Assembly (NCBI GenBank): GCA_965243565.1
Contig: OZ251571.1
Location: forward strand, 321,523 to 385,522
DNA from: Gammaproteobacteria bacterium
GTDB taxonomy: Bacteria; Pseudomonadota; Gammaproteobacteria; Tethybacterales; Persebacteraceae
Reading direction: 5' to 3'
Length of the DNA stretch: 64,000 nucleotides
In this document: one piece after another, positions 1,053 through 33,702 of the stretch
Layout: each line of letters opens with the position of its first letter
Position numbering within the stretch: position 1 is the first letter of the stretch
Notes under the pieces: model-generated
What the model was told of the DNA's origin: nothing
Seen by the model: the letters and a program-made list of their open reading frames with translations, nothing else
Databases searched by the model: none
Made by a program: the position numbers and the translations under genes

Positions 1053-2402
1053 TTGAGGACAATGAACAAACAAGGGTTGGCATTATTTACAGCAACCATT
1101 TATATTTTTAGCATTAATAATAGCTTTGCACAATTAGATACGTCGGCTTATGTAGCAGACAAATTATCCAATAGTACACAATCTGTTATTAATTTTGAAA
1201 ATTCCTATACGTATCAAGGCAATACATTTGTTCAGATGAGTTCATCAGAACAAAATATCGGTGCATATTACTGTAGTGATGCCGAAGTAGTATTTTTACC
1301 GGTTGAAAATCGACAAAATGGTAATATCTATGTCAATGATGCGTATCAGAACTTATACTTATATAGAAAAAATGGCAATGCAGGTATTCTTAGTGATGCC
1401 ATTCGTCTGCGGTATCAAGGTAAGTTAGATTCTTCTTCATTATTAGGAAGACAAGACTGTACTCAAATGCTCACATCGATTGTCCAATACATCGGCAGCA
1501 ATGGCTTAGCAGAAATCGCCTATTCCAGTGCCGATGGCAATGGATCATTGTTACATTATTTTTCAGAAATTAAAACGACATTCGAATATTTATTTTCCAA
1601 TATTGTGGTTTACCCCAAGGGTGCAGACTATGTCGAAAAATTAGCTGACTGGGCTTTCAATATCCCATTTGGTGCAGGTCAGGTAGAATTAATTACTACT
1701 TCTAGTGAGCTTTTGCAGACAAAAGTTGTACCGATAGCGCGTGAAGCGGGGCAAGTTAAAATTTACACAAGCACCGATTCACCTGAAATGAAAGAATTGC
1801 TTAAAAAAAGTAAGAGCAATCAATTCATTCAATTATCTGATACACAATTAAAATCGCAACGGTTTGCAACTTTAGTATCTCAATTAATAGAGCAAGGGGT
1901 TGATTCTGACATCATATCAGCCACCAATCGATTACCTTCTGTGGACGCAATGGATGACAATGTTTATTCATCTGATGCAATCATATTGGTTAGTCCAAAA
2001 GTGAGCAGTCAAGATGTTGGTGTAGCAATCATTAAATCTGCGATTGGTCAATCAATTTCAACAAACAATACAATTCCAACTGTTGTAAAATCTGTCAAAG
2101 AAACAATTTCAAAAAATGAATTTTATGCTGGAAATGGACAATTATTGTCAACATCATTAAATAATTTTTTAATTGCCAATGGCTATAAAATGATATGGGA
2201 GATAGACTCAGGTGTTGACTGGCGTTTTGATATAGAACAAAAAATCAATGAGAATGGTGTTTTTGTAGAGACGCTAGAAAAAGTCTTAAACAATTTCCCT
2301 GTGCAAGCAGTGATGAGTAGAAACGGGAATACGGTGCGGATTAAAATGCGTCATGCTGACAATGGTAATATTGCAAATAACGTTATTCCATTGATAAACT
2401 AA
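1053..2402 (+). CDS. Secreted or N-terminally anchored protein of unknown function, located immediately upstream of the secretin gene.
   Basis: N-terminal hydrophobic segment 'GLALFTATIYIFSINNSFA|Q' fits a signal peptide or a signal anchor. GGAGG lies about 8 nt upstream of TTG 1053, and ATG 1062 is an alternative start. No recognisable catalytic motif; two Cys residues. Confidence 0.55.
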   Translation: MRTMNKQGLALFTATIYIFSINNSFAQLDTSAYVADKLSNSTQSVINFENSYTYQGNTFVQMSSSEQNIGAYYCSDAEVVFLPVENRQNGNIYVNDAYQNLYLYRKNGNAGILSDAIRLRYQGKLDSSSLLGRQDCTQMLTSIVQYIGSNGLAEIAYSSADGNGSLLHYFSEIKTTFEYLFSNIVVYPKGADYVEKLADWAFNIPFGAGQVELITTSSELLQTKVVPIAREAGQVKIYTSTDSPEMKELLKKSKSNQFIQLSDTQLKSQRFATLVSQLIEQGVDSDIISATNRLPSVDAMDDNVYSSDAIILVSPKVSSQDVGVAIIKSAIGQSISTNNTIPTVVKSVKETISKNEFYAGNGQLLSTSLNNFLIANGYKMIWEIDSGVDWRFDIEQKINENGVFVETLEKVLNNFPVQAVMSRNGNTVRIKMRHADNGNIANNVIPLIN

Positions 2403-2428
2403 AGAGACTTTATAAGGAGATATAAGTA

Positions 2429-3958
2429 GTGATGAACAAAATTACATTATGTGCTTTCATGTCAATGTCAGTATTAATTTCAGGTTGTGTCAGCACAACA
2501 GATAATAGCGCGGATATTCTTGAATCTACCAACGTTATAGTTGAGAAGATGGACAAAGAAATTACTACCAAAGTCGAACAAGAAAGCATTCGAAAATCGG
2601 TCGTTTTTGAAGAAGAATCCACTAAACAAACATCACATTACACCAAAGTAAGTGTACCTAAAAATCCAGTTGATATCAATATAACGAATAAAGTACCCTT
2701 TGGCTTTATATTAGAATCAGTGGCAGCAGATTGGGGTTGGTCTGTGCAGTATGCTCAAGATGTTGACACTTCGATTCCCATTGCATTAAGAATCAATAAT
2801 ATTGATGTCATTGATGCGATGGAAGATATCGCTGGGTTGGCAGGTTACACGGTGATTATAGATAAAAAATTACGTCGATGCACTGTTGCTAGTACAGCAA
2901 CATGGACATTCTTATTGCCAGCCAATGTAACTGATACATTAGCATGGAATTATTCTGTTGGAGGATCTCCATCAGCATCAAGTGAGGAAAGTAGTGGAGG
3001 GCTAGAAGGAATTTCAACTGATAGTACCATTACAGGTAGCACCACAACGGATGGAGAAACGGTAATCAATTTTATTGAAAGTTCTATAAATGCAGGAACT
3101 GGTGAAGCCGCAATTATTTCCAATATTCCAAGTCTGGGCGTAATGTTGGTAACTGGTAATATGGCGCAGCTAAAACGAGCTGAGAAAATAATTACACGAA
3201 TGGTTGATGAAGTTTCAACAAGAGTTGAAATTAACGTTGCTATTGTTGAAATTTCTTTGGAAGATACTTTTCAGTTAGGTGTAAGATGGGAAGACGTGTT
3301 AAGAGGTAATTTCGCTTCCAGTTCACTAGGAGAACTTGTAGGTACTAATGCAACCGCATCAGCATCTTACGTAACGGACGATAATATATCATTTGTATTA
3401 GAAGCACTAAAGAAAAGAACAGATTATAGTATTGTTAGTCGCCCCAACCTATTGATTGATAATCATACACCAGCAGATTTGAGTGATTCACGATCAATTC
3501 CATATATATCTGAAATTGAACAATCTACAACTGATGGCGTAACAACGACAACAGCAACCACAGCTTCAGCAATTGACGGATTGAAATTATCAGTTCTTCC
3601 TCATGTATTGGCGGGAGGAAACCTTGTTCAACTGAAATTAGTGCCATTTTTTGGTGTGATTCCTGAGTACAATGAAATAAATTTTGGACTTGGTGGTGAA
3701 GTACTTTCTCTTAATTTACCAACTCAATCAAATAAACAGGCATTCATTTCAGTTACAGTTGAAAGCGGTCAAACATTGGTATTAGCAGGTAATCGTTATA
3801 GCAATACTAGAAAAAGCAACAGTGGACTACCCTATGTTTCAACGCCATTAACCGATACGACATCTGATACCACCGATGTTACTGAATTAGCAATAATTAT
3901 AAATACAAGAATAATTCTACCACCACCTATTAACGTTATTTTAGATAAATCTTTATAA
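2429..3958 (+). CDS. Outer-membrane secretin with a lipoprotein signal, resembling the type IVb pilus secretins TcpC/BfpB.
   Basis: Lipobox 'LISGC' at the N-terminus. The secretin core starts at 'VEINVAIVEISLEDTFQLGVRWE'. The C-terminus 'GLPYVSTP...TELAIIINTRIILPP' matches the canonical secretin tail '...ELLIFITPRII'. Confidence 0.8.
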   Translation: MMNKITLCAFMSMSVLISGCVSTTDNSADILESTNVIVEKMDKEITTKVEQESIRKSVVFEEESTKQTSHYTKVSVPKNPVDINITNKVPFGFILESVAADWGWSVQYAQDVDTSIPIALRINNIDVIDAMEDIAGLAGYTVIIDKKLRRCTVASTATWTFLLPANVTDTLAWNYSVGGSPSASSEESSGGLEGISTDSTITGSTTTDGETVINFIESSINAGTGEAAIISNIPSLGVMLVTGNMAQLKRAEKIITRMVDEVSTRVEINVAIVEISLEDTFQLGVRWEDVLRGNFASSSLGELVGTNATASASYVTDDNISFVLEALKKRTDYSIVSRPNLLIDNHTPADLSDSRSIPYISEIEQSTTDGVTTTTATTASAIDGLKLSVLPHVLAGGNLVQLKLVPFFGVIPEYNEINFGLGGEVLSLNLPTQSNKQAFISVTVESGQTLVLAGNRYSNTRKSNSGLPYVSTPLTDTTSDTTDVTELAIIINTRIILPPPINVILDKSL

Positions 3959-3992
3959 TCCATTTTTTAAATTAAAACAGGAATATAAATTA

Positions 3993-5273
3993 ATGAGCAA
4001 AAGCGAAAAGTTGATATTTTGGGTTGCTGAGGGCATTAATGACCGAGTAAGTGACAACAACGATGGCGATGATGTTGACGTTGATGAAACTGTAGAAGAA
4101 CAATCTGAATTTTTTTGGCAATGGGATACTCAAAATAACCTAGAACAAATAAAACGATCAGACTTAAGATTAAACAAAAATACGGAAATACTGAGGATAA
4201 GTTCTGACGACATTCTTTTTAATTCCAAAGTCAGTAAACTTAAAAAGCTGATTGGATCCGAGTTTTATTCGGCTTCTTGGAAGAAAAACAAACTGGTATC
4301 AGGTTTTGTTGCTAGTGATTCTGATGAAACCATAATGGAAAAGGCAACAGTTATACCAGATGGTTTATTGTCGATAGACAAGACAGATGTCCCTGATATA
4401 CAAAATGAGCAGCTTCACGCATTACACGTAATTGTTTGGTATTTTGATAGCAGCACTATTTACATATCTTTATTATTAAATAGTATGCGTCAAGGTGCTC
4501 AGGTTACGGAATGGCGACAAGTGCAGCATACTGCAGCAGTAACTGCTACTAATTCACTTAATGCCTTAGTCGATTCTGCTGTTAAAATCAGTGGTATTGA
4601 AGTATCAAGCATGGTAATTAGCTGTGCTATTATTTATTTTGGGGCAAGTGATACTCACTTTAGTGAAGCGGGTGAGGGATTAAAAGTAATCCATGATCGT
4701 ATAACAGAAGACATTAAAGAATTTGGCTTTGCAAAAGCTTTTATGTCAGAGCCTGAAAGTTTTTTAAACATTTGGGCAAATAATAAATTATGGAAGGCTG
4801 AGTATAAAACCACCAAATATTCTATTTTAAATATACCTCAATCGACGGTAATGACGATTATGATAGCAGGAATGTTCTCTGGGTTTCTCTTTTTTTCTGC
4901 TAATGGTGTAATTTCTTTTTTTGATTATAGGGCCACCAACGAAAAAATTGAAAAGGTGCAAGCAGATGCTCAACGGGAAACAGAAAAACTACTACAGCTG
5001 AGTAGAGAAAACATCCAATTGTATATTTCTCAATATACAATGCGAGCACAAGAGGCTACGAAATTTTCTGAATTGTTGTTTTATAAAGGTTTAGAATACA
5101 CTATAGAAGCAGAAGGTAGTAGGTGGGAGGCAACTTCTGAATTACCCAAGGATATCTCTAAAGTGGAAGAAATTAGAAGCCTATTAGCGAATATTGAAGG
5201 TTGTACAACAGTTTTTGATCAAAATGATAATTTACTAGAGAGTGGTAAGGTGACAATAGTATGCGAATTCTAA
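3993..5273 (+). CDS. Bitopic inner-membrane assembly protein with GspL/BfpC-like topology: acidic cytoplasmic N-domain, single TM, periplasmic coiled-coil.
   Basis: No signal peptide. A single hydrophobic helix 'VMTIMIAGMFSGFLFFSANGVISFF' sits near residue 290. Its position between secretin and ATPase matches L-like partners of GspE-family ATPases. Assignment is by topology and context only. Confidence 0.4.
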   Translation: MSKSEKLIFWVAEGINDRVSDNNDGDDVDVDETVEEQSEFFWQWDTQNNLEQIKRSDLRLNKNTEILRISSDDILFNSKVSKLKKLIGSEFYSASWKKNKLVSGFVASDSDETIMEKATVIPDGLLSIDKTDVPDIQNEQLHALHVIVWYFDSSTIYISLLLNSMRQGAQVTEWRQVQHTAAVTATNSLNALVDSAVKISGIEVSSMVISCAIIYFGASDTHFSEAGEGLKVIHDRITEDIKEFGFAKAFMSEPESFLNIWANNKLWKAEYKTTKYSILNIPQSTVMTIMIAGMFSGFLFFSANGVISFFDYRATNEKIEKVQADAQRETEKLLQLSRENIQLYISQYTMRAQEATKFSELLFYKGLEYTIEAEGSRWEATSELPKDISKVEEIRSLLANIEGCTTVFDQNDNLLESGKVTIVCEF

Positions 5274-5827
5274 GTAAGTGGACAATTATATTATTGATAC
5301 TTCTATTAATGGGTAGCGGGTGGTCGTACTATAAATGGCAAAAACCCAAGAGAATAGAGGCAGAGCAACAGCTTCAAACAGAATATAAAAAATATAAAAG
5401 GCATAAAAGTGTAGCTGAAAGATTTAGTAAAAGCATTGAGTCATCGGAGTTAAATATTGATGAAGATAATAAAAATTACAAAAATTTCAGATTTTCATCA
5501 GAAACAAGTCATTTTGACTTTCGTTTGAAATTGTATGATGCTTTGAATGAAAAAATAAAAGATATTGGCCTTGAAGAATTTAAATTAATAGAAACATCCG
5601 AGCAAGTAGGGTCCCCTAGATCTCAGAATTTACCAAAAATACATAAAACTTATGCGACAGAATACTACTTTTCTATTGAAGGTGAGGCTAGTTATGGACA
5701 AGTAGTTGCTTTTATTTTGAAAAAATTACCAGATTTACCAGTGGCAGTAACTCGAATAAAAAAAGACAAAGAGAAGTTTAAAATTAATTTTGTTGTTTGG
5801 CGAATAGAACAAGATGGTGCAAATTGA
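5261..5827 (+). CDS. Small bitopic protein with an N-terminal TM helix, GspM/PilO-like by topology.
   Basis: 'WTIILLILLLMGSGWSYY' is an N-terminal TM helix followed by a roughly 160-aa periplasmic region. Start and stop overlap the neighbouring genes (4-nt and 14-nt overlaps), indicating translational coupling. Confidence 0.35.
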   Translation: MRILSKWTIILLILLLMGSGWSYYKWQKPKRIEAEQQLQTEYKKYKRHKSVAERFSKSIESSELNIDEDNKNYKNFRFSSETSHFDFRLKLYDALNEKIKDIGLEEFKLIETSEQVGSPRSQNLPKIHKTYATEYYFSIEGEASYGQVVAFILKKLPDLPVAVTRIKKDKEKFKINFVVWRIEQDGAN

Positions 5828-7655
5828 AGCGAAAGATTCAAAGTCTTCAACAGAAATAAGTAAAGAAGTCATCAACTTTTATGTTGATGAAGGTATTCGT
5901 TCTTATATAATAGAAGCAGCAGCCAGACGTGCTTCATGGAAAAAAACAGGTGAAAGAGGGTTTGAAGATACACTTGTAGAAATGCTTGGTGCAGGAGCTT
6001 CTTCTGTTTTAAAAGCCATTGCAAAACGTTGGAGTATTCCTTTTGTAGATGAACTTCAACCACCGGGAGAGTTATTAAGTGTTATAGAAGACTCAAAACT
6101 ATTCAATAAAGATGGTTTTATTTCTATTTATAATGGCGAATACGTGCCATTTCGCACCAACGGCAATACTCTAGATCTTATATGTAGTAGCCGTCGATCG
6201 CGTGATAAAGGAATAAATGACTTTATCCGTTTACGTTTGGTTAACGAAGAGCATATTAATGTTACAACTTCTTTGGCAAGTAAAGCACTTATAACAAAAG
6301 CCTTCCATCTTTATTTTTCAGATGGCTCAAGAGAATTGAACGGTGCATTGCGAAAAATGGAAGCTATGCTTCTTGCAGGGCAAGATTTTTCAGATTACGA
6401 TATAGCCGAAGCGGTGGTTTTTTTGTTTGCAAGAGCGGCTTATTCTGGAGCAAGTGATGCCATGATATTTGTAACAGAAACGTCGGCTCTATACAAACTA
6501 AAAATTTCAGGTGTTGCTCTATTGGCTGCAGAAACTGAACCAGTTGTTTTGGCTGCTATATTAAGAGTACTTGTTAATGTATTTGCGGGTGAAAATGACA
6601 GTTCTTTGGACGAAAGTCCACAAGAAACATTAATTGATTTTAACGATGACCATATGAGCAAAAGTGGTAATATAGACAAACGCTCAAGACTGATGTTAGA
6701 GCGAGCAAAAGGGTTATTAGGAGGTTATCGTTTTCGTTTACAATTAGCAAAGCCACAGCCTAGAACATCGGATGGTGTTTATGCAGTATTTCGTGTCCTT
6801 AAAAAAGAAGCGTCTAACGCATCGCTATCGAAATTAGGCTATGGGAGCAATACGCCACTTTTAAAAACGGCAGTATGTAGAAAAGAAGGGCTAATACTTT
6901 TTGTTGGTACGACTGGTTCTGGTAAAACCACTGGTGCTGACGCAATGGTTGGTGAAGTTGACCCGATTAGACGGTGGGTTTATACAATTGAAAATCCAAT
7001 TGAATTCCAACATCCTTTGTTTATGCAGCATGAGGTTAGAGGGGGAAGCGAAGAATATTTAAAAATTATTAAGTCATTCTTACGATCTAGTCCAGATGTT
7101 TGCTTTTTTGGAGAAACGCGCGAGGCAGAAGTAGCACTTCGCCTTTGTGAGTTAGCCTTAACCGGAAGTTTGGTTATAAGTACCTTACATGCACCCGACG
7201 CAGTGTCTGCCATACAAAGAATGAGAGCGTGGGGCATTGATAACAACAGTATAAGCGAAACATTGATTTTAATTGTTGGTCAACGTTTATTTCCTAGAAT
7301 TTGTGTCCATTGTTCGGAGCCTATTTCTGGAGAGTTCGGTAAAAAAATACATGAATTGGTTAAAAATTTAAGAGATGATTTAAAAGAAATCGTCATGACG
7401 AGTGACGTTGTTAAAAAAGCCAACGAAGAAGGTTGTAAACATTGTTTTTATACTGGGTATAGTGGTCAGTGGTTGGTCTATGAAATGTTGCCTGTTAACG
7501 CTGAGTTACGTGCTAAAATTGTAGCAGGTGACGCGCCTGATCAGATGCGACGATTTTTACATAGAGAACAAGATATGTATATAGGGATTGCAAGAGGCGT
7601 TGGTCATGGTATACTAGATGTTGAAAGTGCGTTACCAGAACTATTAGGAGCTTAA
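5814..7655 (+). CDS. Type II/IV secretion assembly ATPase of the GspE/PilB/TcpT family.
   Basis: Walker A 'GTTGSGKTT', Asp box 'YTIENPIEF', Walker B 'DVCFFGETRE', His box 'LVISTLHAPDA'. Tetracysteine Zn motif 'CVHCSEP...CKHC'. About 350 aa of N-terminal extension precede Walker A. Confidence 0.9.
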   Translation: MVQIEAKDSKSSTEISKEVINFYVDEGIRSYIIEAAARRASWKKTGERGFEDTLVEMLGAGASSVLKAIAKRWSIPFVDELQPPGELLSVIEDSKLFNKDGFISIYNGEYVPFRTNGNTLDLICSSRRSRDKGINDFIRLRLVNEEHINVTTSLASKALITKAFHLYFSDGSRELNGALRKMEAMLLAGQDFSDYDIAEAVVFLFARAAYSGASDAMIFVTETSALYKLKISGVALLAAETEPVVLAAILRVLVNVFAGENDSSLDESPQETLIDFNDDHMSKSGNIDKRSRLMLERAKGLLGGYRFRLQLAKPQPRTSDGVYAVFRVLKKEASNASLSKLGYGSNTPLLKTAVCRKEGLILFVGTTGSGKTTGADAMVGEVDPIRRWVYTIENPIEFQHPLFMQHEVRGGSEEYLKIIKSFLRSSPDVCFFGETREAEVALRLCELALTGSLVISTLHAPDAVSAIQRMRAWGIDNNSISETLILIVGQRLFPRICVHCSEPISGEFGKKIHELVKNLRDDLKEIVMTSDVVKKANEEGCKHCFYTGYSGQWLVYEMLPVNAELRAKIVAGDAPDQMRRFLHREQDMYIGIARGVGHGILDVESALPELLGA

Positions 7656-7662
7656 AAAATAT

Positions 7663-8904
7663 ATGTCTAATCAACGTCCAGGAGTAAAAGGTGACTATTA
7701 TACTTATACCGGAAAAAATTTAGATGGTGAAAAAGAATCAGGTATGGTTTTTGCAACATCGGTTGCCTTGGCTAAGCGATCTGCTGCTAAACGTCTTTTG
7801 TCTGTTCAATCAATATTTAAAGACCCAGTAGCAAATATAGCTTGGAATTTGGGAGATGGTTATTCCAAAGAACAAGTTGCGCGTATGTTTCGTGTTATTG
7901 GAGACAACCTCGAAAGAGGGTCATCTTTGCCCGAAAGCATTTCATTGGCTCGACTGTTTGTAAGCGATCCATATTTACGTTGTGCTTGTTTTAACATACT
8001 AGATCTTATGTCAAGCGGTAAGTCTTTATCGGCTGCTATGGCTGCATCACATTTTAGTGTTGCAGATTGTACTATTGTGGCATCTGTCAGAGGTGGTGGT
8101 GGTGGAGACGCAAATCAAGGAGGCTACGCTAATGCGTTTAGAATTCGTGCGCATGCTTTGGAATTCGAGGCAAAAGGAGAAAAAGAATTAAATCAAGCAT
8201 TAGTTCCATTTATTATCTTTTTGATATTTATTATTGTTATGGTATATATACTGTTGTTTGTAATGGGTAAGCATTCTGGTGATATGTTAAGCGGTGCAAT
8301 ACCCAAGAGAAATCAAATAGGTTTTGTCGGGGGGTATATTAACTTTTTGCAGGATCTCCAAGAAAACATAGGGCTATATACTACTATATATTTTACGTTT
8401 GGAGCGGGGATTATTTTCCCTTTATTTGTAAAGCAACTGCGTTATAAAATGATATCATTCGCTTTTCCATCATTTTCAAAATTTAAATTAGAGCTAGATC
8501 AATACAAGACTTGGCAATTATGGCAGTTACTTCGAATTTCAGGTGTGGATAATGTCCGTATTTTTGCATTAACAGCTAAAATTGTTGATAACCCACTAAT
8601 AATGCAGCAAAATAAAGCGATAATGGAGCAAACCAGACGAGGAAGAGGGCTTGCTGTAATCGTTCGAGATGTGATAAAATCAGCACGATTAAGAGAGCAG
8701 CTAACCTCCGTTCTTGAAGGAAAGTCAGCAGACAAAGGCATGGATATAGTATTATCATTACTACAATTACAAGTAAACGAATACAAAAATAGAGCAGTCT
8801 TATTATTTGGTGGTATGACAAAAGGTATTGTCGCACTTGCTCTGGTTAGTATGATGCTAATGATTATTGGGCCCTCTTTTATGCTAATGGCCAATATAAA
8901 TTAA
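7663..8904 (+). CDS. Inner-membrane platform protein of the GspF/PilC/TcpE family.
   Basis: 413 aa. Three predicted TM segments ('LVPFIIFLIFIIVMVYILLFV', 'LYTTIYFTFGAGIIFPLFV', 'IVALALVSMMLMIIGPSFMLMA') separated by cytoplasmic domains. It sits directly after the ATPase. Confidence 0.7.
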   Translation: MSNQRPGVKGDYYTYTGKNLDGEKESGMVFATSVALAKRSAAKRLLSVQSIFKDPVANIAWNLGDGYSKEQVARMFRVIGDNLERGSSLPESISLARLFVSDPYLRCACFNILDLMSSGKSLSAAMAASHFSVADCTIVASVRGGGGGDANQGGYANAFRIRAHALEFEAKGEKELNQALVPFIIFLIFIIVMVYILLFVMGKHSGDMLSGAIPKRNQIGFVGGYINFLQDLQENIGLYTTIYFTFGAGIIFPLFVKQLRYKMISFAFPSFSKFKLELDQYKTWQLWQLLRISGVDNVRIFALTAKIVDNPLIMQQNKAIMEQTRRGRGLAVIVRDVIKSARLREQLTSVLEGKSADKGMDIVLSLLQLQVNEYKNRAVLLFGGMTKGIVALALVSMMLMIIGPSFMLMANIN

Positions 8905-8950
8905 AGAATTTTTAATAAAACAAAAACTATAAAAAAAAAAGGAGAAAATA

Positions 8951-9517
8951 ATGAAAATTATAAATAAAATAAGCATAATCAAAGGTCGCTTGCGTCAAGT
9001 AGGTTTTACACTGGTGGAACTTGCTTTGGTGGTTGCTGCTTTGGCGATTATTTCAGTTAGTGCTATTGTTGTAAGTGATAGTGTGTTAAGCAATGCACGT
9101 TCATCGTCAATGATTAGTCAAATTAACACAGTACAGACATCTGCCGAATTGGCAAGAGTACATACCAGTTGTAGGGCTTTAAAATTGAATTTCTTAGTAA
9201 CTGATGCAAACGCTGCCGATAATTCATGTGGTAAAGCCAACCTTGCAGGCTGGGAAGGTCCATATATAAGGAATGCAATTATTTTGACTACTGGTATAAT
9301 GAGTCTTGAGACTGTAGCCGCTGGTGCGGAGATGGAAATGAAAGTGGTAGGTGGGATTGCAATTCTTGAGGTGGAAGCAGGCTCAAATGACGTTTTAGAT
9401 GGCATAGTGGCTAGCGTTTGTCCAGATAATCTAGCAGCTTCCTCTCTGGCTAATATTAGTGCTACGAAAACTTGTTTTAGTACCGGTAGTGTAGTAAATC
9501 TCTATATGTCTCAATAA
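8951..9517 (+). CDS. Major type IV prepilin.
   Basis: Leader 'MKIINKISIIKGRLRQVG' followed by 'FTLVELALVVAALAII' gives Gly-1, Phe+1 and Glu+5. Four Cys residues allow two disulfides including a C-terminal D-region pair. Strong SD 'AAGGAG' 7 nt upstream. Hairpin terminator downstream. Confidence 0.8.
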   Translation: MKIINKISIIKGRLRQVGFTLVELALVVAALAIISVSAIVVSDSVLSNARSSSMISQINTVQTSAELARVHTSCRALKLNFLVTDANAADNSCGKANLAGWEGPYIRNAIILTTGIMSLETVAAGAEMEMKVVGGIAILEVEAGSNDVLDGIVASVCPDNLAASSLANISATKTCFSTGSVVNLYMSQ

Positions 9518-9565
9518 TGGTATCTGATTTGTAATTTTACTAAAACAATATTCATTAAAATTTGG

Positions 9566-9600
9566 TTTAGAAGTATTTTTTAATACTTCTAAACTTTTTT
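9566..9600 (+). terminator. Rho-independent terminator/attenuator after the major pilin gene.
   Basis: Perfect 12-bp inverted repeat tttagaagtatt / aatacttctaaa (9566-9577 / 9582-9593) with a 4-nt loop, followed by TTTTTT at 9595-9600. The stem is AU-rich. Confidence 0.45.
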
Positions 9601-9613
9601 AACAGATAAAGCA

Positions 9614-10522
9614 ATGAAATTTAAGCAAAAAGGTGTAACACTGGTTGAACTTTCTTTGGGGCTAGTTGCAACAGCTGTAATTGTGGGGGCGTTATTCCCA
9701 CAATTAGCGCTTGTATTTAGACATATTGAAAGCATACACAACGATAAATTTACGTCACATATTCGTCAAATACTTGTAGAATTTTACCGAAGAAATCCAG
9801 AGGATTTTGTTTCTAATGGAGCTCCCGCTGCCACAGTAGTGGATGTTGTTGATATTAATGAGTTTGCAACAGGAGCATTGGATGATGTCAGTGTTGATTT
9901 TAATAATGAAACATGGCATTATGTGGCTTGCTCAACAAGTGGTCAAATTACGGTACAGCCAGGGGGCGTTCTTAATTTCTGTGATATCATAGGCTACCGT
10001 AACGATGCTCCTCTTACTCTTAATTTAAACAATCGAAATTTGAATTTTTGGAATGGTCTAGTAAACGACGATACAATTGAGAGATTCGAAATAATTTCTG
10101 GACGTTCAATTATTCAAGATCAAATCGACATTACCCGACAGCGTGTAGAAAGGGTGAGAGAGAATTTAGAACAACACGCGGACACACTATTTCGCACAGC
10201 AAAACAAAGAGCATATAGAGTAAATCGTTATGTGGACCATTCAGTAGAAGATACTTATAAAACCAATTATGACTATGATGGTCGAGCAATTTTTGATCGA
10301 AGTCCCGCTATTAATCATGGCGAACGAGCGGCGCTTGGCTTTAATACTAATGATCTTATAACTCCCTTATCAACTGATCTTATTCAAATTGATAATACAT
10401 CAGCAAATATAAGATCGAATGATCATGGGCATGACCCTCCATATACTGCAGAAGTTTTTGTTATTATAAATGCGGGTGGTCTTGCTATCAGAGTGAGTAG
10501 TTTAGCAGTCACAAAAAACTAG
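9614..10522 (+). CDS. Large minor pilin-like protein, paralog 1 of 3.
   Basis: Prepilin N-terminus 'MKFKQKG|VTLVEL' with Glu+5. 302 aa. Shares the Cys-pair block 'W.YV.CS....FCDI.GYRN' and the C-terminal 'DLITP...IDNT...PYTAEVFV' block with the ORFs at 10602 and 13106. Confidence 0.7.
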   Translation: MKFKQKGVTLVELSLGLVATAVIVGALFPQLALVFRHIESIHNDKFTSHIRQILVEFYRRNPEDFVSNGAPAATVVDVVDINEFATGALDDVSVDFNNETWHYVACSTSGQITVQPGGVLNFCDIIGYRNDAPLTLNLNNRNLNFWNGLVNDDTIERFEIISGRSIIQDQIDITRQRVERVRENLEQHADTLFRTAKQRAYRVNRYVDHSVEDTYKTNYDYDGRAIFDRSPAINHGERAALGFNTNDLITPLSTDLIQIDNTSANIRSNDHGHDPPYTAEVFVIINAGGLAIRVSSLAVTKN

Positions 10523-10601
10523 CTAAAAAAATAGGTAATTATTGATAAATTACATATAATAGTACTTAAAAGATACAAATCTAAATATTAATTTATTAAC
10601 A

Positions 10602-11528
10602 ATGAAAATTCAGATTAAAAATCAAAGAGGTGTAACACTGGTTGAAATAGCCATATCTATTGTGCTATTATCTGTGCTTATAACTGTGCTGTTTAATGCG
10701 CTGGGTAATGCAATAGGAAGTATTCAGTATATTAAAAACGAAAAATTTTCACAACATATGCAAAAAACGGTTCTTGAATATTACAAACAAAATGTTTCAG
10801 ATCCTGCTGTAAATCCGCGGACGAGTCAATTCATGGTTGGTGCAGGTAACCCTGCGCCAGTACACATACCTGCAGCTGCTATAAATCCATTTTCATCTGG
10901 CGTTGTTACAGATGTTGCTATTGATTTTAATAACAATAGATGGTGGTATGTGAACTGCTCGTTTAATAATCCTAATAACGTTATAGCAGTAGGGGAGCAA
11001 AATTGGCGCTTTTGTGACATAGTTGCTTACAGAAATGAGAATCAATTGCCTGTAGCCGATTTAGTAATGACAAATATTGCGTTTTGGAATAATAGATTAA
11101 ATGCCAATGTAATTGATGACTACATTATTATATCTGGTAGTAATGTAGTACATGAGGCTGTTTCACAAACACGCAAATCTGTTAAGAGAGTTCGTGATTT
11201 ATTAGAAAATTATTACGTGCTACTTGTTTCGCATACAGAAGAACAACCTTATTTTATTAATCGATTTGCAGGTCATGATGGTTTTAATAAGCAAAGTCAA
11301 ACTTCATATGATGTACGATCGGCATTAAATTCAGACAATGTACTAGATAATAATGAATTATCTGCTATAGGTCTTGTGCCTAATGACTTAATAACACCGT
11401 TCGGAAGCATACAAATTGATAACACAAATAACAATAGGTTCCCTTATACAGCACAGGTGTTTGTTAATTTTCAAGATGTTAATGCGGACACTCTTAAAAT
11501 CAGTACACTTGCTGTTTCTAAACTTTAA
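10602..11528 (+). CDS. Large minor pilin-like protein, paralog 2 of 3.
   Basis: 'MKIQIKNQRG|VTLVEI' with Glu+5. 308 aa. Conserved blocks 'WWYVNCS...RFCDIVAYRN' and 'NDLITPFGSIQIDNT...PYTAQVFV'. Confidence 0.7.
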   Translation: MKIQIKNQRGVTLVEIAISIVLLSVLITVLFNALGNAIGSIQYIKNEKFSQHMQKTVLEYYKQNVSDPAVNPRTSQFMVGAGNPAPVHIPAAAINPFSSGVVTDVAIDFNNNRWWYVNCSFNNPNNVIAVGEQNWRFCDIVAYRNENQLPVADLVMTNIAFWNNRLNANVIDDYIIISGSNVVHEAVSQTRKSVKRVRDLLENYYVLLVSHTEEQPYFINRFAGHDGFNKQSQTSYDVRSALNSDNVLDNNELSAIGLVPNDLITPFGSIQIDNTNNNRFPYTAQVFVNFQDVNADTLKISTLAVSKL

Positions 11529-11540
11529 TAGGAAAAAATT

Positions 11541-12215
11541 ATGAAAAAAAACATTATAAAATTAATAAGTATTGGCTTGGTTTTTTCTGCACAGGTACAT
11601 GCAGAAGAAGTTGATTTATTTGATTACTGCAAGCAAATGGCAAAAGGATTCGCGATATTAGAGGTTAAAACTCAATTAAACTCAAAAGATGATTTAAATA
11701 CCTGCCGTCAATATATTGCTGAATTAGGAGAATTACGTAAACAATTTATCGTCATTGAAGAGTTCGATAGTTTGATTGATGAAGAGGAAGCCGAAGAAGC
11801 AATAGTTGAAGAAGATTATGTCACAGTTGATGATGCTATTTTACTAATACAGAATGAAATAAATAGTCTAAAATCTAAAATTGATAAAGATATAAGCAAG
11901 CAATTAGAAAAAATTAAAAGTGAGCAGCAACCAATTATTACTAATATTGAACAAAATCCAAATGTATCGCCTGTTGAAGAGCAAAAGCAACGGACAGTAG
12001 CAATACAACAACCTAAATCGTTTGAAATGGTTACATTCGTTGGACAGTTGCGTCAAGGGGGAGAGGATAAATACATAATCCAGGTGGATGGCAACCTAAT
12101 CCAATTAACTGAACAAGAAATGTACAAAGGATTTGCTTTTACAAAACAAGGTGACAATTATTATTTGGGAGATATAAAAGTGGCGGATAATCTAGAAACA
12201 TTGGAATCTAACTAA
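11541..12215 (+). CDS. Secreted periplasmic protein of unknown function, paralogous to the ORF at 14153.
   Basis: Signal peptide 'MKKNIIKLISIGLVFSAQVHA'. Conserved 'YC...C..Y.AEL.ELR' block, an acidic coiled linker, and a C-terminal 'YIIQVDGNLIQLTEQEMYKG' block shared with the 14153 ORF. Confidence 0.5.
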   Translation: MKKNIIKLISIGLVFSAQVHAEEVDLFDYCKQMAKGFAILEVKTQLNSKDDLNTCRQYIAELGELRKQFIVIEEFDSLIDEEEAEEAIVEEDYVTVDDAILLIQNEINSLKSKIDKDISKQLEKIKSEQQPIITNIEQNPNVSPVEEQKQRTVAIQQPKSFEMVTFVGQLRQGGEDKYIIQVDGNLIQLTEQEMYKGFAFTKQGDNYYLGDIKVADNLETLESN

Positions 12216-12267
12216 ATATTAGATTGTAGTTTAATGCGACATTATCATTTCATTCAGGAAGCGATTA

Positions 12268-13131
12268 GTGATTAATTCTAGGAGACACAATTATAACTAT
12301 GTACATAGTCAAAAAGGATTGGCATTATTATCGCTGATTCTTTTATTGGGTATAGTTTTAGGTGTAGCGTTGGTTGCATTTTATAATGTAATCGCAGAAG
12401 AGCGTTTAGCACTCCAAAATAATACCACTGATGAAAAATTACAAACTGTAGTTGATGACACAGAGGCTTATTATAGGCATAATCCTGATTTCACTGCACC
12501 CGGTTTTGCAGCTAATGTCTGTTCTTTTGCACTGGCAGTTAGTCCTCCGTTTGGATGTGCATTATCGCCGACTCAATTTTGGGGACGAGAAGGCGAGGTT
12601 ACATTTTTTAATATCCTTATTTTTGAACCTAATGCTGATCTTGCTGATAATGCAACGGTGCCAGTGGCTGCGATTAATGGAGAACAGATACAGTTAAACG
12701 CACAGCGAAATCTAAGAGAGCAACTTCGTAGAATCGTCTCAGTCATAGAAATAAACCATCAGCAAATGCACCAAATCAATGCTGGTGGTCATGCAGATAC
12801 TGGTGTTAATTTGTATTGTTTGAATGGGAACTCTCAAATAGGTCTATTGGGGTGTGAAAGCGATTGGACACCCCTACCTGCTGCTTTCTTAAGTGCGTAC
12901 TTAGCACCAGGAGATCAGGTATCTCCGTTCGGTACTCCTATTGTATACCAGACAGCAGGGACTGTCACCTTAACTGATGTCATTGACAACTATACAATCA
13001 GACCGAATGATTCTTATGATGTTGTGGCAGCCGTAGTTTCTGCAACTACACCTTGGGATAATAATGGGGTGGCTTTTCGAGAATGGGCTGTGGCACTAAA
13101 GGGAAATGCATACCATGATCTCGCGCAATAA
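12268..13131 (+). CDS. Pilin-like protein lacking Glu5, GspK/PilX-like in that respect.
   Basis: Basic leader ending 'SQKG', then the hydrophobic helix 'LALLSLILLLGIVLGVALVAF' with Ser rather than Glu at +5. 287 aa. Embedded among the other pilin-like genes. Confidence 0.4.
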   Translation: MINSRRHNYNYVHSQKGLALLSLILLLGIVLGVALVAFYNVIAEERLALQNNTTDEKLQTVVDDTEAYYRHNPDFTAPGFAANVCSFALAVSPPFGCALSPTQFWGREGEVTFFNILIFEPNADLADNATVPVAAINGEQIQLNAQRNLREQLRRIVSVIEINHQQMHQINAGGHADTGVNLYCLNGNSQIGLLGCESDWTPLPAAFLSAYLAPGDQVSPFGTPIVYQTAGTVTLTDVIDNYTIRPNDSYDVVAAVVSATTPWDNNGVAFREWAVALKGNAYHDLAQ

Positions 13132-14107
13132 AGGTATTACGCTTATAGAAATGGCAATAACTATTGCCGTACTTACTGTTTTAACTGGCGCAGTATTAGT
13201 GTCAGTGCCATTTGATTTGTTAAGTAATCTTCGTCAAAAAAATCATAAAGATTCTGTTGGTATTGTTTTGGATGCCTACTATCAAGTAAATATTGGAAAT
13301 TTAGTTTTTCCCACTGCTGCGGACGTGATTCTAACTACTATTAGTTTTGATGAGATAGAAGCCATTGGGAGGAATCTTAAACTTAATCAAGAAATAAATT
13401 TTAGTCAAGATTCTGGTGGGAGAAATTGGTTTTATGCGCAATGTTCAACATCAGGATTTTTGGATCATGCTGACATCTTTGTTTCTATAGATTCTTCCAC
13501 TAAAATATCATATTGTGGTCTTGTTGCTTATACAACGGGTGAAGCGGGGGCACCACTTGCGAATGATGTTATTAAAAACAAAACTATAGCAGATTGGCAA
13601 AATGCAACAGTGAATCCAGCAATCGAAGATTATGTTATTGTCGAAGGTCGAAGAGGTGTGAGTGCTGAAATAAACAAAACATCTGATAAATTAAATGCAG
13701 TTGTAACAGCATTTGAAGAGTACTATAGACTTTTAGATTCGAATGACCCTGTCGCAGGTATCGCAATTAATCGATTTTCTCATACACCATCACAGAATTA
13801 TGATTTACAGAGAAGAACGATTGATAAAATATCAATTTTACGCAATACTGAAGTAAAAGCTAATGATGATCATTTACTTACACGAAGTTATCAGGCTATA
13901 ATGAAAATTTCAGACGAGACTCTTAATACAGGGTTTGGCGAAATACAATTTGATAATGGCTCCACCAGCATACGAACATCTTCTCACACAACACCGGCTT
14001 ATAAGGTGTACCAAGGACCACCCTATACAGTTGAGTTATGGGTAGAGTTATCCGGGAATGGTGCTATAATGCGGAAGACGGCATCATCTAAAATTTACGG
14101 GTATTAA
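13106..14107 (+). CDS. Large minor pilin-like protein, paralog 3 of 3.
   Basis: 'MISRNKG|ITLIEM' with Glu+5; the start is probably the ATG at 13115. Conserved 'NWFYAQCSTSGF...SYCGLVAY' and 'GFGEIQFDNGSTSIRTS...PPYTVELWV' blocks. Confidence 0.7.
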   Translation: MHTMISRNKGITLIEMAITIAVLTVLTGAVLVSVPFDLLSNLRQKNHKDSVGIVLDAYYQVNIGNLVFPTAADVILTTISFDEIEAIGRNLKLNQEINFSQDSGGRNWFYAQCSTSGFLDHADIFVSIDSSTKISYCGLVAYTTGEAGAPLANDVIKNKTIADWQNATVNPAIEDYVIVEGRRGVSAEINKTSDKLNAVVTAFEEYYRLLDSNDPVAGIAINRFSHTPSQNYDLQRRTIDKISILRNTEVKANDDHLLTRSYQAIMKISDETLNTGFGEIQFDNGSTSIRTSSHTTPAYKVYQGPPYTVELWVELSGNGAIMRKTASSKIYGY

Positions 14108-14152
14108 TGGTATTAATACAATAAAAAATACAAATTTTAAAGGGGTTTTACT

Positions 14153-14872
14153 TTGAATAAATTAAAATTAATAGTTTTATTTTCTTTGCTATTAACAGGC
14201 TCTGTACAAGCAGAGAGTATTGATATCGAAGTATTATCAGTAGAGTACTGTAAAAAATTTCGTGAGGGAGCAACCGTTAATGTTGATAACAATATTCCTG
14301 ATCCAAGTAGTGGCAAAACAGAAATGGCTACAAGTTTTGACGTTACCATCTCTGAAATGGTTAAATGTAAAAAATACTTTGCCAATCTTACCGAACTTAG
14401 GCAGACAATACAGGATGTTAATAGTGATACTGACACAGAATTAGGACGAACTGACGATGTTTTACAAAATAATAATGTTATTTCGCTAGAAAGTTTCAAA
14501 GAAGAAATGGCGTACGAACTTGCTTTATTTGAGGAAAAATATTTTTCGCAAAAGAAAATCGAAATAGAAAATTATGTGCAAAAAATTAACTACGAAGCGC
14601 GTCAGTTAGCGCGTAACAGCAATACCGTTAGAAATACCGTCACTGCGGCCGTTAATCAAACAGCTGATGTTGCCAGCAACAGAGTGCAAACAAAAAAAGA
14701 AGCACCACTATTCTTATTACAAGGGACTTTTCGTCAAAGTGGTACTGAATACTATATCATTAAGAGCTTTGATCAATTGATAACCTTAAAAGAGGGTGAT
14801 TCTTTTAAGGGGAAAAAATTACTTAAAAACCCAAAAGGTCTATATTTTGATGATTATCGTATCATTCAATAA
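14153..14872 (+). CDS. Secreted periplasmic protein, paralog of the 11541 ORF.
   Basis: Signal peptide 'MNKLKLIVLFSLLLTGSVQA'. Shared Cys-pair and C-terminal 'YYIIKSFDQLITLKEGDSFKG' blocks. Confidence 0.5.
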   Translation: MNKLKLIVLFSLLLTGSVQAESIDIEVLSVEYCKKFREGATVNVDNNIPDPSSGKTEMATSFDVTISEMVKCKKYFANLTELRQTIQDVNSDTDTELGRTDDVLQNNNVISLESFKEEMAYELALFEEKYFSQKKIEIENYVQKINYEARQLARNSNTVRNTVTAAVNQTADVASNRVQTKKEAPLFLLQGTFRQSGTEYYIIKSFDQLITLKEGDSFKGKKLLKNPKGLYFDDYRIIQ

Positions 14873-17784: not shown

Positions 17785-19656
17785 ATGAAAGACAGTAAAC
17801 ATTTATATATTGATTACTTTAATTTAAAAGAACCACCTTTTAAGATAACGCCAACCACGAGCTATTTTTATGGCGGTGGAAAAAGAGGAGAAATTTTACA
17901 CGCATTGTTATATGCCATTAATTCTGGTGAGGGGATTATGTTGCTAACTGGTGAGGTGGGTAGTGGCAAAACCATGATACTTAGAACACTCGTGGATCAG
18001 CTAAGCGAAAAAACAGATATTATTTATATTGCCAATCCCAGTTTGTCCGGTAGTGAAATTTTATACAATATATGTGAAGAGTTAGGATTACAATCTGAAG
18101 AAAAAAAGCCCGATACTGTTCGTATATTACAAAACCACTTGATTCAAAGGCACCAAGAGGGTTATCGTGTGGTTGCTTTTATTGATGAAGCACAAGCAAT
18201 GCCGGATGAATCACTTGAAGAGATTCGATTATTGTCTAATTTGGAAACAAGTCGTGATAAATTATTACAAATTGTATTGTTTGGACAACCAGAACTAGAA
18301 GAAAAACTGTCAAAACAACATTTGCGACAATTGCGCGAACGTATCACGGTGGCGCTTAAAATAAAACCATTTACCAAAGAGGATATAAAAGAATATATAT
18401 CAACGCGTTTGCATGCCGCTGGACACGATGGCAAACAATTATTTACCAATGACGCGTATCGAATCATCTTTGCTGTTTCGAAAGGTATTTCTCGTCGAAT
18501 TAATGTATTGGCGGATAAAACGTTACTATCAGCGTTTGCCCGTGGCTCACTCATTGCAGAAAAAATTGATGCCAAGATGGCTGCACGTGATGTGAGTTAT
18601 GGCAAGCTCTTGTATCGGTCGGAACAAAACCGTCTTTTTTCTAAATTTATTACCATTGGTTGTACGGTAGGGTGTTTATTAATTATTACCGTATTTTCGT
18701 TTATTTATTTTGGTGAACAGGTCACAGCATCATTTGCTGAAGAGCCAGTGGCAGACAAACCCGTACAGAGTAAAGTCGTAAAAAAAGATACAGTAATACA
18801 AAACACCATTGAAATCGCACTGAATGAAATTATTAATGCCCAAGAAAAACAGTCTGAGCTTGAAGTAGCAGTTGTTATTGAAGAGGAATCCGAGCCAGTT
18901 ATACAACCCGATGTAGAGGTGGTAATTGTTGAGGAATCCGAGCCAGTTATACAACCCGATGTAGAGGTGGTAATTGAAGAGGAATCCGAGCCAGTTATAC
19001 AACCCGATGTAGAGGTGGTAATTGTTGAGGAACAACCTAAAGTAGTTTCTAAGAAAGTTGAATCTGTTAAACAGCAAACCAAACCGGTAAATATTGGTAA
19101 ACAAATGTCTCAAACTATTGTACAGTTACAACAACAAAAAGAGGTTGCTTTAAGTGGAGAACAACTAGCACTTGAGATTTCCAAACATGCCGAAGAACAC
19201 ACGGATGGACCTCAAGTAGAAGGTGGACAAACGGAATGGCAAATAGTTGTTAAAAAGAAAACAACTGAATCATTGGGTATTGTAGAAAATAGTCAGTGGG
19301 ATTGGATGCCTGCATCAAGTTATTTGCGTAGCCGCTTGAACGCAACGCAAACATGGATAAAAAACAACCCTGACCAGCAGCAATATACCTCACGACTAAT
19401 AACGGTGTCGCAAGAGCGCGCTATATTTTTAGAAAAATTCCTTCGTTACTTTGCCGATTATTACCCTATTCGCAATGTATTGGTTTATCCCATCCAATTA
19501 AAAAGTGGTAAGAAATTCGTTGTCAATTTTGGTGTTTATCCATCGCAAAGTGATGCTGAAGTTTTTATTAATAATATCCCCCGTTATTTTACGGGTGGCG
19601 AGCCTTATGCTCAAGAAATTAGTTCTATTGTAAAAGAATCACAGGATTTATGGTAA
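17785..19656 (+). CDS. ExeA/GspA/MshM-family AAA+ ATPase with a TM segment and a periplasmic C-terminal SPOR-like domain.
   Basis: AAA_22-type Walker A 'LLTGEVGSGKTMILRTL'. TM helix 'FITIGCTVGCLLIITVFSFIYFG'. C-terminal 'VVNFGVYPSQSDAEVFINNIP' resembles a SPOR fold. The periplasmic linker contains an acidic tandem repeat. Confidence 0.75.
   Translation: MKDSKHLYIDYFNLKEPPFKITPTTSYFYGGGKRGEILHALLYAINSGEGIMLLTGEVGSGKTMILRTLVDQLSEKTDIIYIANPSLSGSEILYNICEELGLQSEEKKPDTVRILQNHLIQRHQEGYRVVAFIDEAQAMPDESLEEIRLLSNLETSRDKLLQIVLFGQPELEEKLSKQHLRQLRERITVALKIKPFTKEDIKEYISTRLHAAGHDGKQLFTNDAYRIIFAVSKGISRRINVLADKTLLSAFARGSLIAEKIDAKMAARDVSYGKLLYRSEQNRLFSKFITIGCTVGCLLIITVFSFIYFGEQVTASFAEEPVADKPVQSKVVKKDTVIQNTIEIALNEIINAQEKQSELEVAVVIEEESEPVIQPDVEVVIVEESEPVIQPDVEVVIEEESEPVIQPDVEVVIVEEQPKVVSKKVESVKQQTKPVNIGKQMSQTIVQLQQQKEVALSGEQLALEISKHAEEHTDGPQVEGGQTEWQIVVKKKTTESLGIVENSQWDWMPASSYLRSRLNATQTWIKNNPDQQQYTSRLITVSQERAIFLEKFLRYFADYYPIRNVLVYPIQLKSGKKFVVNFGVYPSQSDAEVFINNIPRYFTGGEPYAQEISSIVKESQDLW
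18880..19032 (+). repeat. In-frame tandem repeat of about 45-51 nt, three copies, encoding '(E)EESEPVIQPDVEVVI(V)', inside the ExeA-like gene.
   Basis: The unit 'gaggaatccgagccagttatacaacccgatgtagaggtggtaatt' is directly repeated three times, with gaa/gtt insertions between copies. Confidence 0.8.
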
Positions 19657-32294: not shown

Positions 32295-32295
32295 A

Positions 32296-33702
32296 ATGAT
32301 TGCCCCTGTTATCATCAGCGATTCCATCAAGCAATGGCATGGTCGGGTGATTCACGGTGATAACCTAACTATTTTAAAGGAAATTCCCGATAATTCTGTT
32401 GAATTAATCTATATTGATCCACCCTTTAACACTGGAAAAGAGCAGTTTCGGCAGCGTATTAAGACAGTCGAAGTAACCACTGGTGATGGTGATAGAACTG
32501 GTTTTGGTGGCAAGCGATACAACACTACATTTGTCAATAAAAATGGTTACGCTGATTCCTTTGATGATTTTATAGGTTTTTTAGAGCCACGCTTGCGCGA
32601 GGCGCATCGCATTTTAACAAAAAATGGCAGTTTGTTTTTTCATATTGACTGGCGCGAATCTGCCAATTGTCGCTTGTTACTCGAAACTATTTTTGGCGGC
32701 AAACAACACTGTCTCAATGAAATTATCTGGGCCTATGACTACGGCGCCCGCTCGCAGAAAAAATGGTCACCGAAGCACGATAACATTTATTGGTTTGCCA
32801 AAGACCCTGCTAATTACTTATTTAATTACGACGCCATGGAGCGTATCCCCTATATGGCGCCTGAATTGGTTGGTGCCGAAAAAGCCGAACGTGGTAAAAC
32901 GCCAACCGATGTATGGTGGCATACCATTGTAGCAACCAATGGTAAAGAAAAAACAGGTTATCCCACCCAAAAACCGCTTGCCTTATTGCGATGGATAGTG
33001 GCGGTTCATTCCAATGTGGGTGATACGGTGTTGGATTTTTTTGCAGGCAGCGGTACAACGGGCGAGGCGGCTAAGCAACTGAACAGAAATTTTATTTTGA
33101 TTGATAAAAATGATGATGCGGTTGACACCATCAATAAAAGAATTAATTCTGACAATAAAAAGCAGGACAATATTTACACTTTAACGGAACAAGAAAAAAG
33201 CCTGCAAGCAAAAATTCAAACGTTGAAAAATAGCACCGATTATCGCCCTGATAAAACTATTTGGTCGGGCAGTCCTAACGCTTGGATGTTGACACTCCCT
33301 TCTGCTCGTAAAGGAAAATTAGGCAGAGAATTGGTGGTCGAATTACTGTATTTATTTTTAGGAGTGAAGTCCGAGAAAAAAGGCAAAGCAATAGCTGTAA
33401 AAAATAAAAAAATAGCAGCAAAATTTTCAATGCTTTGGGATACAAGCGTTTATAAATTTGAACAAATAAGACCAACATTTGATTATTACTGTTTTTTAGG
33501 TATATCGCCTAATAAATTTTATTTTTGGATAATTCCTGCCGAAGAATACGGAAATTTTGATAAGCAGCACAATGAACAATCTCGTTGGGTTGAATATAAT
33601 CCAAGCAAAAATAACGACAGTGCTATAAATTGGTCGCAGTATGGTGGTGATATTGCACAATTACAAGCAACAGATTTTAATTATGTAGAATTAGCAAATT
33701 AA
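32296..33702 (+). CDS. Beta-class (N6-adenine/N4-cytosine) DNA methyltransferase with an uncharacterised C-terminal domain of about 190 aa.
   Basis: Motif IV 'IYIDPPFNTG' precedes motif I 'VLDFFAGSGTTGEAA'. The ATG at 32296 is 1 nt after the nrdA stop; the longer ORF from 32212 overlaps nrdA. Confidence 0.8.
   Translation: MIAPVIISDSIKQWHGRVIHGDNLTILKEIPDNSVELIYIDPPFNTGKEQFRQRIKTVEVTTGDGDRTGFGGKRYNTTFVNKNGYADSFDDFIGFLEPRLREAHRILTKNGSLFFHIDWRESANCRLLLETIFGGKQHCLNEIIWAYDYGARSQKKWSPKHDNIYWFAKDPANYLFNYDAMERIPYMAPELVGAEKAERGKTPTDVWWHTIVATNGKEKTGYPTQKPLALLRWIVAVHSNVGDTVLDFFAGSGTTGEAAKQLNRNFILIDKNDDAVDTINKRINSDNKKQDNIYTLTEQEKSLQAKIQTLKNSTDYRPDKTIWSGSPNAWMLTLPSARKGKLGRELVVELLYLFLGVKSEKKGKAIAVKNKKIAAKFSMLWDTSVYKFEQIRPTFDYYCFLGISPNKFYFWIIPAEEYGNFDKQHNEQSRWVEYNPSKNNDSAINWSQYGGDIAQLQATDFNYVELAN

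Follow-up and report, generated by a model that had tools for sequence, protein, structure and literature searches.

Paralogous exported proteins paired with minor pilins in a divergent type IVb pilus cluster are candidate HR-type connectors

The 64,000-nucleotide stretch analyzed here, hereafter the window (contig OZ251571.1 of assembly GCA_965243565.1, Gammaproteobacteria, Persebacteraceae), carries a type IV pilus-type cluster of 13 genes, all on one strand (1053–14872), toward the 3' end of which lie two genes for proteins with export signals, S1 (11541–12215, + strand) and S2 (14153–14872, + strand). We found that S1 and S2 are paralogs belonging to a tiny, unannotated orphan family with five known members, each of which is accompanied by the gene of a large minor pilin of a second family, termed here the P family. 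We tentatively favor an explanation in which both proteins are soluble and serve their cognate P minor pilins as dedicated connectors or accessory proteins of the HR type.

Both genes have a plausible ribosome-binding site, AGGA at 8 nt 5' of the ATG at 11541 for S1 and AAGGGG ahead of the TTG at 14153 for S2, and both products begin with a classical Sec/signal peptidase I (SPase I) signal, MKKNIIKLISIGLVFSAQVHA↓EE in S1 (11541–11603) and MNKLKLIVLFSLLLTGSVQA↓ES in S2 (14153–14212; arrows mark the predicted cleavage), ending in VHA↓E or VQA↓E as SPase I sites of the AxA↓E form. A lipobox is absent from both proteins, and their first Cys lies 9–13 residues past the predicted cleavage site. Each protein has exactly two cysteines (C30/C55 in S1 and C33/C72 in S2), located in an N-terminal domain that is helical in S1 (11604–11750) and spans 14213–14410 in S2. 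In S1, this domain is followed by an acidic linker (11751–11825), a long helix (11826–11924) and a predicted HR-like beta-sandwich (12018–12191), and the corresponding predicted HR-like C-terminal block of S2 extends from 14702 to 14869.

S1 and S2 were aligned by BLASTP over their full length with 25% identity (E 2e-10), and none of 1000 shuffles in a Smith-Waterman test matched the real score, with z values of 14 for the full proteins and 11.5 for the mature ones. When the test was applied by region, the Cys-pair N-domain (z 7.1) and the C-terminal block (z 8.8) each scored above all 1000 shuffles, whereas the acidic linker and helix had no sequence similarity (z −0.4) and shared composition and layout only. 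Because the shuffle tests were significant in the two terminal domains and not in the linker and helix, the paralogy is real and confined to these two domains. An earlier account made from the letters of this DNA and its open reading frames (ORFs), hereafter the sequence-only reading, had credited both proteins with classical signal peptides, a conserved N-terminal Cys pair, an acidic coiled linker and related C-terminal blocks, and had named a lack of similarity on proper alignment as the finding that would speak against it. The similarity was clear on alignment, and the signal peptides, with their SPase I-type sites and plausible ribosome-binding sites, the Cys pair and the relatedness of the C-terminal blocks all held; the acidic linker, while present in both proteins, is alike in composition and layout and not related in sequence.

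The S family proved to be very small. An exhaustive HMMER profile search of 1.84 billion cluster-representative proteins added three members to S1 and S2, namely P0003 (E 3.6e-8), P0004 (E 5.5e-5) and P0005 (E 6.4e-5), all with the layout of S1 and S2, with C30, G36, C55, Y58, R66, G168 and I179 invariant and with a mature N-terminus conserved in the family as [EQ]E-x-[DN]-[IL]. When S1 and the alignments of the S and P families were used as queries in word-indexed homology searches, nothing beyond the proteins of the window itself was retrieved, except for P0004 with the S-family alignment, and a tblastn search of a plasmid collection with S1 gave no match. A JGI metagenome scan with an alignment of four ATPases yielded 80 loci, mostly generic GspE/PilB, none of which contained an S-family ORF and in which P-family hidden Markov model (HMM) matches were limited to the shared N-terminal pilin helix; a genome scan with the ATPase of the cluster returned solely an unrelated Tepidibacillus locus.

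All five S genes were accompanied by a P-family gene, which lay directly upstream in four of them and 6 kb away in the fifth. The gene directly 5' of that for P0003 is a P-family gene (E 4e-11 to P2 of the window), the ORF preceding the P0005 gene ends in ...LPYTAIVW...AVSKF in agreement with the P-family C-terminus, and the P0004 gene has a P-family pilin gene 6 kb downstream (HMM E 7e-18). We found no description of this conserved P–S gene pair in the literature.

The pilin genes around S1 and S2 were examined for the unit that had been duplicated. P1 (9614–10522, + strand), a large P-family minor pilin with Glu5, P2 (10602–11528, + strand), likewise large and separated from the downstream S1 gene by 12 nt, and P4 (13106–14107, + strand), located 5' of S2, were related to one another by BLAST, with 35% identity between P1 and P2 (E 1.6e-57) and 22–25% identity of P4 to both (about E 1e-17); P1 and P4 had N_methyl matches. 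P3 (12268–13131, + strand) is pilin-like and lacks Glu5 (QKG↓LALLS); it had no BLAST similarity to P1, P2 or P4 and was instead matched by hhalign to pilin-like proteins without Glu5 from three Burkholderiales plasmids (probability 83%, E 9.5e-6, 231 columns), where these proteins hold a fixed slot in all three clusters.

The sequence-only reading had seen in this region an array of pilin-pilin-S1-pilin-pilin-S2 and a duplicated module. The gene order is real, and a P-family pilin–S pair was indeed duplicated, but the simple tandem duplication of a pilin-pilin-S unit was rejected since P3 is unrelated to P1, P2 and P4 and is placed by hhalign in a different family. The conserved duplicated unit is a single P-family pilin gene followed by S, and P2/P4 and S1/S2 have diverged equally, to about 25% identity each. 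Given that the plasmid clusters are ordered as pilin, P3-like protein, PilT, P-like pilin and exported protein, the trio P3-P4-S2 most likely represents the ancestral state, and P1-P2-S1 is probably a copied P–S pair in which the pilin gene was duplicated afterward.

The P0004 gene (locus L002, 9983–17264; ENA ERZ25072293, a 74-kb contig) was located just 5' of genes for a TraI_2 relaxase, a coupling protein and a DtrJ-like protein, in a region resembling an integrative and conjugative element; ankyrin-repeat genes and an IS605/Cas12f-like TnpB gene were also found near it. This location, together with that of the closest pilus clusters on plasmids beside VirB10, TraG and TraH, favors an explanation in which the S/P pair is a conjugation accessory derived from a mobile element, S acting in cell-to-cell contact such as mating-pair stabilization or recipient recognition and the chromosomal cluster being a domesticated conjugative type IVb pilus. 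The recipient specificity of IncI plasmids, which is set by PilV minor pilins (PMC9045228), counts on the same side. We nevertheless regard this explanation as quite unlikely: the cluster of the window is flanked by the 3' end of rne and by coxB, transfer genes being absent from all 64 kb, and the proposal concerns origin and context rather than mechanism and is compatible with the other explanations.

Pfam, NCBIfam, PHROGs and PDB sequences provided nothing meaningful for S1, S2 or their isolated domains. An AlphaFold2 model of S1 was built with the five-sequence S-family alignment, in which residues 160–217 were predicted confidently (pLDDT 87–92) as six strands forming two consecutive three-stranded sheets (3+3), while the confidence was moderate for the long helix at 96–128 and low for the N-terminal helices and spacers. 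According to the model, a mature S protein would begin with a short helical N-domain, probably held together by a single disulfide, and continue with a disordered acidic spacer, the long helix, a second spacer and a beta-sandwich of ~55 residues. Foldseek comparison with the PDB, run with two independent models, gave its highest-ranking matches to PilP (2lc4, 2ivw and 2y4y) and to the GspC HR domain (3oss_C), with probabilities of 0.63–0.84 and E-values of just 0.13–1; non-HR matches did not exceed about 0.16, except for short chromodomain-type alignments (about 28–57 columns) at 0.30–0.54.

HR domains are made of two three-stranded antiparallel sheets and share 10–17% identity between members, and those of GspC, GspB/OutB and PilP all bind the N0 domain of their own secretin (PMC9239104). 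The likeness of the S C-domain to these domains is reproducible and topologically sensible but statistically weak, and we take it as the best lead and not as proof; on the models, the S C-domain may be homologous to HR domains. Of the comparators suggested in the sequence-only reading, PilP thus surfaced as the best match, whereas no pilotin occurred among the listed structural matches. Since PilP and GspC HR domains are the best structural matches of the C-terminal domain, a role in association with the secretin is plausible.

In the explanation that we favor, S would be exported by Sec without lipidation and its disulfide would form after export. The C-domain, proposed to be an HR-type module as in PilP, GspC and GspB, would dock on the periplasmic N0 ring of the secretin encoded in the cluster, the N-terminal part would keep the cognate P pilin within a priming or tip complex, and S as a soluble connector would steer the P-capped pilus into the secretin. 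In this view, S may bind both the N0 domain and the P pilin and reside in the periplasm rather than outside the cell. No other HR-like protein was recognized in the pilus cluster, and S would fill the HR role because this divergent type IVb machine has no other protein of that kind. The S-type proteins would be the only HR-like candidates in this cluster family if the product of 5261–5827 is PilO/GspM-like.

Several observations weigh against a connector of this kind. Sequence-level comparisons gave no support, as Pfam PilP/T2SSC, NCBIfam, PDB sequences, E. coli GspC/GspB and R64-type PilP all failed to match; isolated S C-domains had no match to Pfam PilP/T2SSC at E up to 10 and nothing in hhalign against E. 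coli GspC/GspB, and the hhalign comparison of the S profile with BfpU, BfpG, BfpL, R64-type PilM/PilP and E. coli GspC/GspB aligned signal peptides or noise only. The failures against Pfam PilP/T2SSC and E. coli GspC/GspB carry little weight, since true HR domains have only 10–17% identity with one another. Unlike PilP, GspC and GspB, S has neither a lipid nor a transmembrane anchor. The S1 and S2 genes lie among the minor pilins, 7.6 kb and 10.2 kb past the end of the secretin gene, not beside secretin or platform genes, and were duplicated along with the pilin; there are two diverged S copies and a single secretin. P0004 is encoded in a relaxase/coupling-protein module, with no pilus machinery within 10 kb and none in the 20 kb examined, and the hhalign link between S and the exported proteins of the related plasmids reached a probability of only 22%.

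The two diverged S copies and the one secretin fit a pilin-specific partner better than a secretin clamp, and together with the position in the pilin module, the co-duplication and the missing anchor they give real weight to the main rival, in which each S protein would be secreted or displayed at the tip as the partner of its cognate P pilin, as CofJ is of CofB and TcpF of TcpB. S would then be exported by Sec, dock on the tip pilin and leave through the secretin, serving as an adhesion or colonization factor and not as a part of the machine. The S genes are inside the pilin module, nearly always directly 3' of a P pilin gene, and S1/S2 and P2/P4 are equally diverged, as would suit such partners. 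The conserved mature N-terminus [EQ]E-x-[DN]-[IL] also recalls the N-terminal docking peptides of CofJ and TcpF. Tip minor pilins of type IVb systems are described to bind a secreted effector (PMC10191384). On the other hand, S is a small protein in which spacers and a coiled coil are combined with a small domain, a build more often seen in periplasmic scaffolds, its positional counterparts on the plasmids have long Pro/Ala-rich spacers, and its best fold match is a secretin-binding module. We consider the tip-partner explanation possible, if less probable than a connector.

The one-to-one linkage and co-duplication of S and P genes, with periplasmic targeting and a probable disulfide, would also suit periplasmic chaperones or priming factors that stabilize the bulky P pilins or deliver them to the platform with no contact to the secretin; a chaperone had also been among the suggestions of the sequence-only reading. 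This leaves the HR-like fold unexplained, type IV pilins are already anchored in the membrane ahead of assembly, and we know of no dedicated periplasmic pilin chaperone in the characterized type IV pilus systems; we judge such a function unlikely.

Of the roles that the sequence-only reading had put forward, that of a pilotin or a factor for secretin stability, of the TcpQ/BfpG or GspS type, is very improbable. S is exported and encoded in a cluster that contains a secretin, which would agree with it, but it has no lipobox such as the outer-membrane lipoproteins of the GspS/PilF/PilW pilotin type carry, no TcpQ domain (no PF10671 match in Pfam) and no adjacency to the secretin gene. A TcpQ/BfpG or pilotin identity was rejected; hhalign against BfpG, BfpU and BfpL aligned the signal peptide at most, and for BfpG nothing else. 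The role is further left without support because the slot beside the secretin is already taken by a TcpQ-like gene (1053–2402).

The gene order of the cluster is TcpQ-like protein, secretin, two platform proteins, ATPase, platform protein, pilin, P1, P2, S1, P3, P4 and S2, of which the front part, up to the pilin, agrees with type IVb systems (cf. tcpQ-C-R-D-(S)-T-E and R64 pilL-N-O-P-Q-R-S). All components are very divergent, with matches to curated models all far below the cut-off, and the cluster is an ordinary type IVb pilus machine in an unusually divergent form. The first gene (1053–2402, + strand), directly 5' of the secretin gene, encodes a PilL-like protein with a C-terminal TcpQ-like domain (Pfam TcpQ E 6.8e-4, under the gathering score), and TcpQ-domain genes were found in the matching position in the related plasmid clusters and in one R64-type cluster. 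The secretin (2429–3958, + strand) has a lipoprotein-type N-terminus (LISGC) and matched Pfam Secretin (1.2e-17) as well as the NCBIfam models MshL (1.9e-26) and PilN type IVB (6.9e-16), the latter two under cut-off.

A bitopic protein of 426 aa (3993–5273, + strand), with no family match in the library searches, is placed in the PilO2/GspL/TcpR slot by its position and hydrophobic segment only. The following small bitopic protein of 188 aa (5261–5827, + strand), in the slot before the ATPase, also had no family match and was aligned with its positional counterparts on three plasmids; its sequence pattern is read as PilO/GspM-like and not HR-like. The assembly ATPase of the GspE/PilB family (5814–7655, + strand; Pfam T2SSE 1.4e-48, NCBIfam GspE 3e-45) and the platform protein of the GspF/PilC family (7663–8904, + strand; Pfam T2SSF 4.4e-7) precede the probable major pilin of 188 aa (8951–9517, + strand), which had N_methyl and TIGR02532 matches. 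Directly 3' of this gene, a strong 14-bp hairpin followed by a T-run (9564–9595, + strand) looks like a terminator or attenuator set between the major pilin gene and the downstream genes for the minor pilins and S proteins. Neither a prepilin peptidase nor a PilT-type retraction ATPase is encoded within 1053–14872; in the related plasmid clusters, the PilT gene sits between the P3-like and P-like pilin genes.

Outside the cluster, an ORF cut by the window start (14–931, + strand) matched the RNase E/G thioredoxin-like domain with its first residues (E 1.6e-5) and continues as a long basic low-complexity tail, directly after which the pilus cluster starts. Three genes past S2, an AAA ATPase of the ExeA/GspA/MshM family (17785–19656, + strand; Pfam AAA_22 3.8e-29, TIGR03015 4e-66) combines a membrane segment with a periplasmic part in which EESEPVIQPDVEVVI occurs three times in tandem. 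The usual partner of GspA in secretin assembly is the HR-domain protein GspB, and this ATPase may thus be connected with the pilus cluster or with S1 and S2. Farther downstream, an N6/N4 DNA methyltransferase ORF (32212–33702, + strand; Pfam 3.3e-51) was found between nrdA (29373–32294) and nrdB (33762–34856), overlapping the 3' end of nrdA.

Type IVb pili and their kin need a coupling of both the inner-membrane platform and the tip to the secretin, the parts of which are poorly defined outside model systems. The cluster described here and its plasmid relatives have no recognizable PilP, GspC or TcpS and carry an exported, predicted HR-like protein tied to a large minor pilin. If S bridges pilin and secretin, it would be a straightforward example, open to experiment, of the way in which tip complexes are led into the channel, and a new family would join a highly divergent class of domains; if S is a tip partner, the CofJ/TcpF principle would be extended to a new lineage. 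Either way, the gain for pilus biology is incremental and involves no new kind of system. A broader and more doubtful proposal is that the pilin–S pair is an exchangeable two-gene tip cassette of an undescribed type IVb branch, with S as a new pilus-dependent exported partner whose HR-like sandwich would ride on or plug into its cognate pilin, and that tandem P–S cassettes would let a bacterium whose genome is small (1.68 Mb) display alternative tips. IncI plasmids vary their pilus tips through a shufflon.

Among known systems, PilP of the alignment subcomplex of type IVa pili is a lipoprotein encoded in pilMNOPQ. S, by contrast, carries an SPase I signal, its gene follows that of a minor pilin, and it has an extra two-Cys helical domain and a long helix; no sequence similarity to PilP was detectable. 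GspC, GspB and OutB of type II secretion differ from S in their N-terminal transmembrane anchor and domain order. The R64-type PilP resembles S in consisting of a signal peptide, a helix, a Pro/Ser linker and a small beta domain, and the protein had a faint Pfam T2SSC match; its gene, in contrast, lies between those of PilO2 and the ATPase, it has no two-Cys N-domain, and the comparison of its profile with that of the S family was not significant (hhalign E 0.21). The R64 PilP slot is occupied in the window (5261–5827) and in the three plasmids by the protein read as PilO/GspM-like.

In the toxin-coregulated pilus of V. cholerae, TcpS is regarded as the counterpart of PilP and GspC, and the three are treated as equivalent platform-secretin connectors (10.1101/525063; PMC10191384, including its Table 1). 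Compared by description only, TcpS is, like S, a small exported protein of a type IVb machine, but it is described as a lipoprotein encoded between tcpD and tcpT, a slot that contains no gene in the cluster of the window. Like CofJ and TcpF, S has a Sec signal and is encoded in a type IVb operon that also contains a large minor pilin; no fold likeness to them appeared among the structural matches listed. CofJ and TcpF are globular and larger, and their genes are not known to adjoin that of the minor pilin. Both are described as secreted partners functionally tied to the large minor pilin in type IVb operons (PMC10191384).

The nearest relatives of the secretin and ATPase were found on plasmids of Robbsia, Variovorax and Limnohabitans in clusters of the same gene order that adjoin the conjugation genes for VirB10, TraG and TraH, the Variovorax secretin being matched by BLASTP over its full length (E 4e-52). 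Their P-like pilin genes were recognized by the P-family HMM (E 2.4e-10 and 8e-6) and are directly followed by an unannotated gene for an exported protein (L005, 14427–15608; L006, 16420–17448; L007, 14500–15384) with a signal peptide, a Pro/Ala-rich spacer, a coiled coil and a small beta domain. These Ala/Pro-rich proteins are longer than S (294–393 aa) and differ from it further in having an NPxTGxxLSxEEL motif and no two-Cys domain. They resemble S in following a P-family pilin directly, in clusters of the same order, and in combining a signal peptide with a beta domain, which hhalign aligned with the S C-domain at E 9e-4; from this similarity, they are tentatively regarded as homologs of S.

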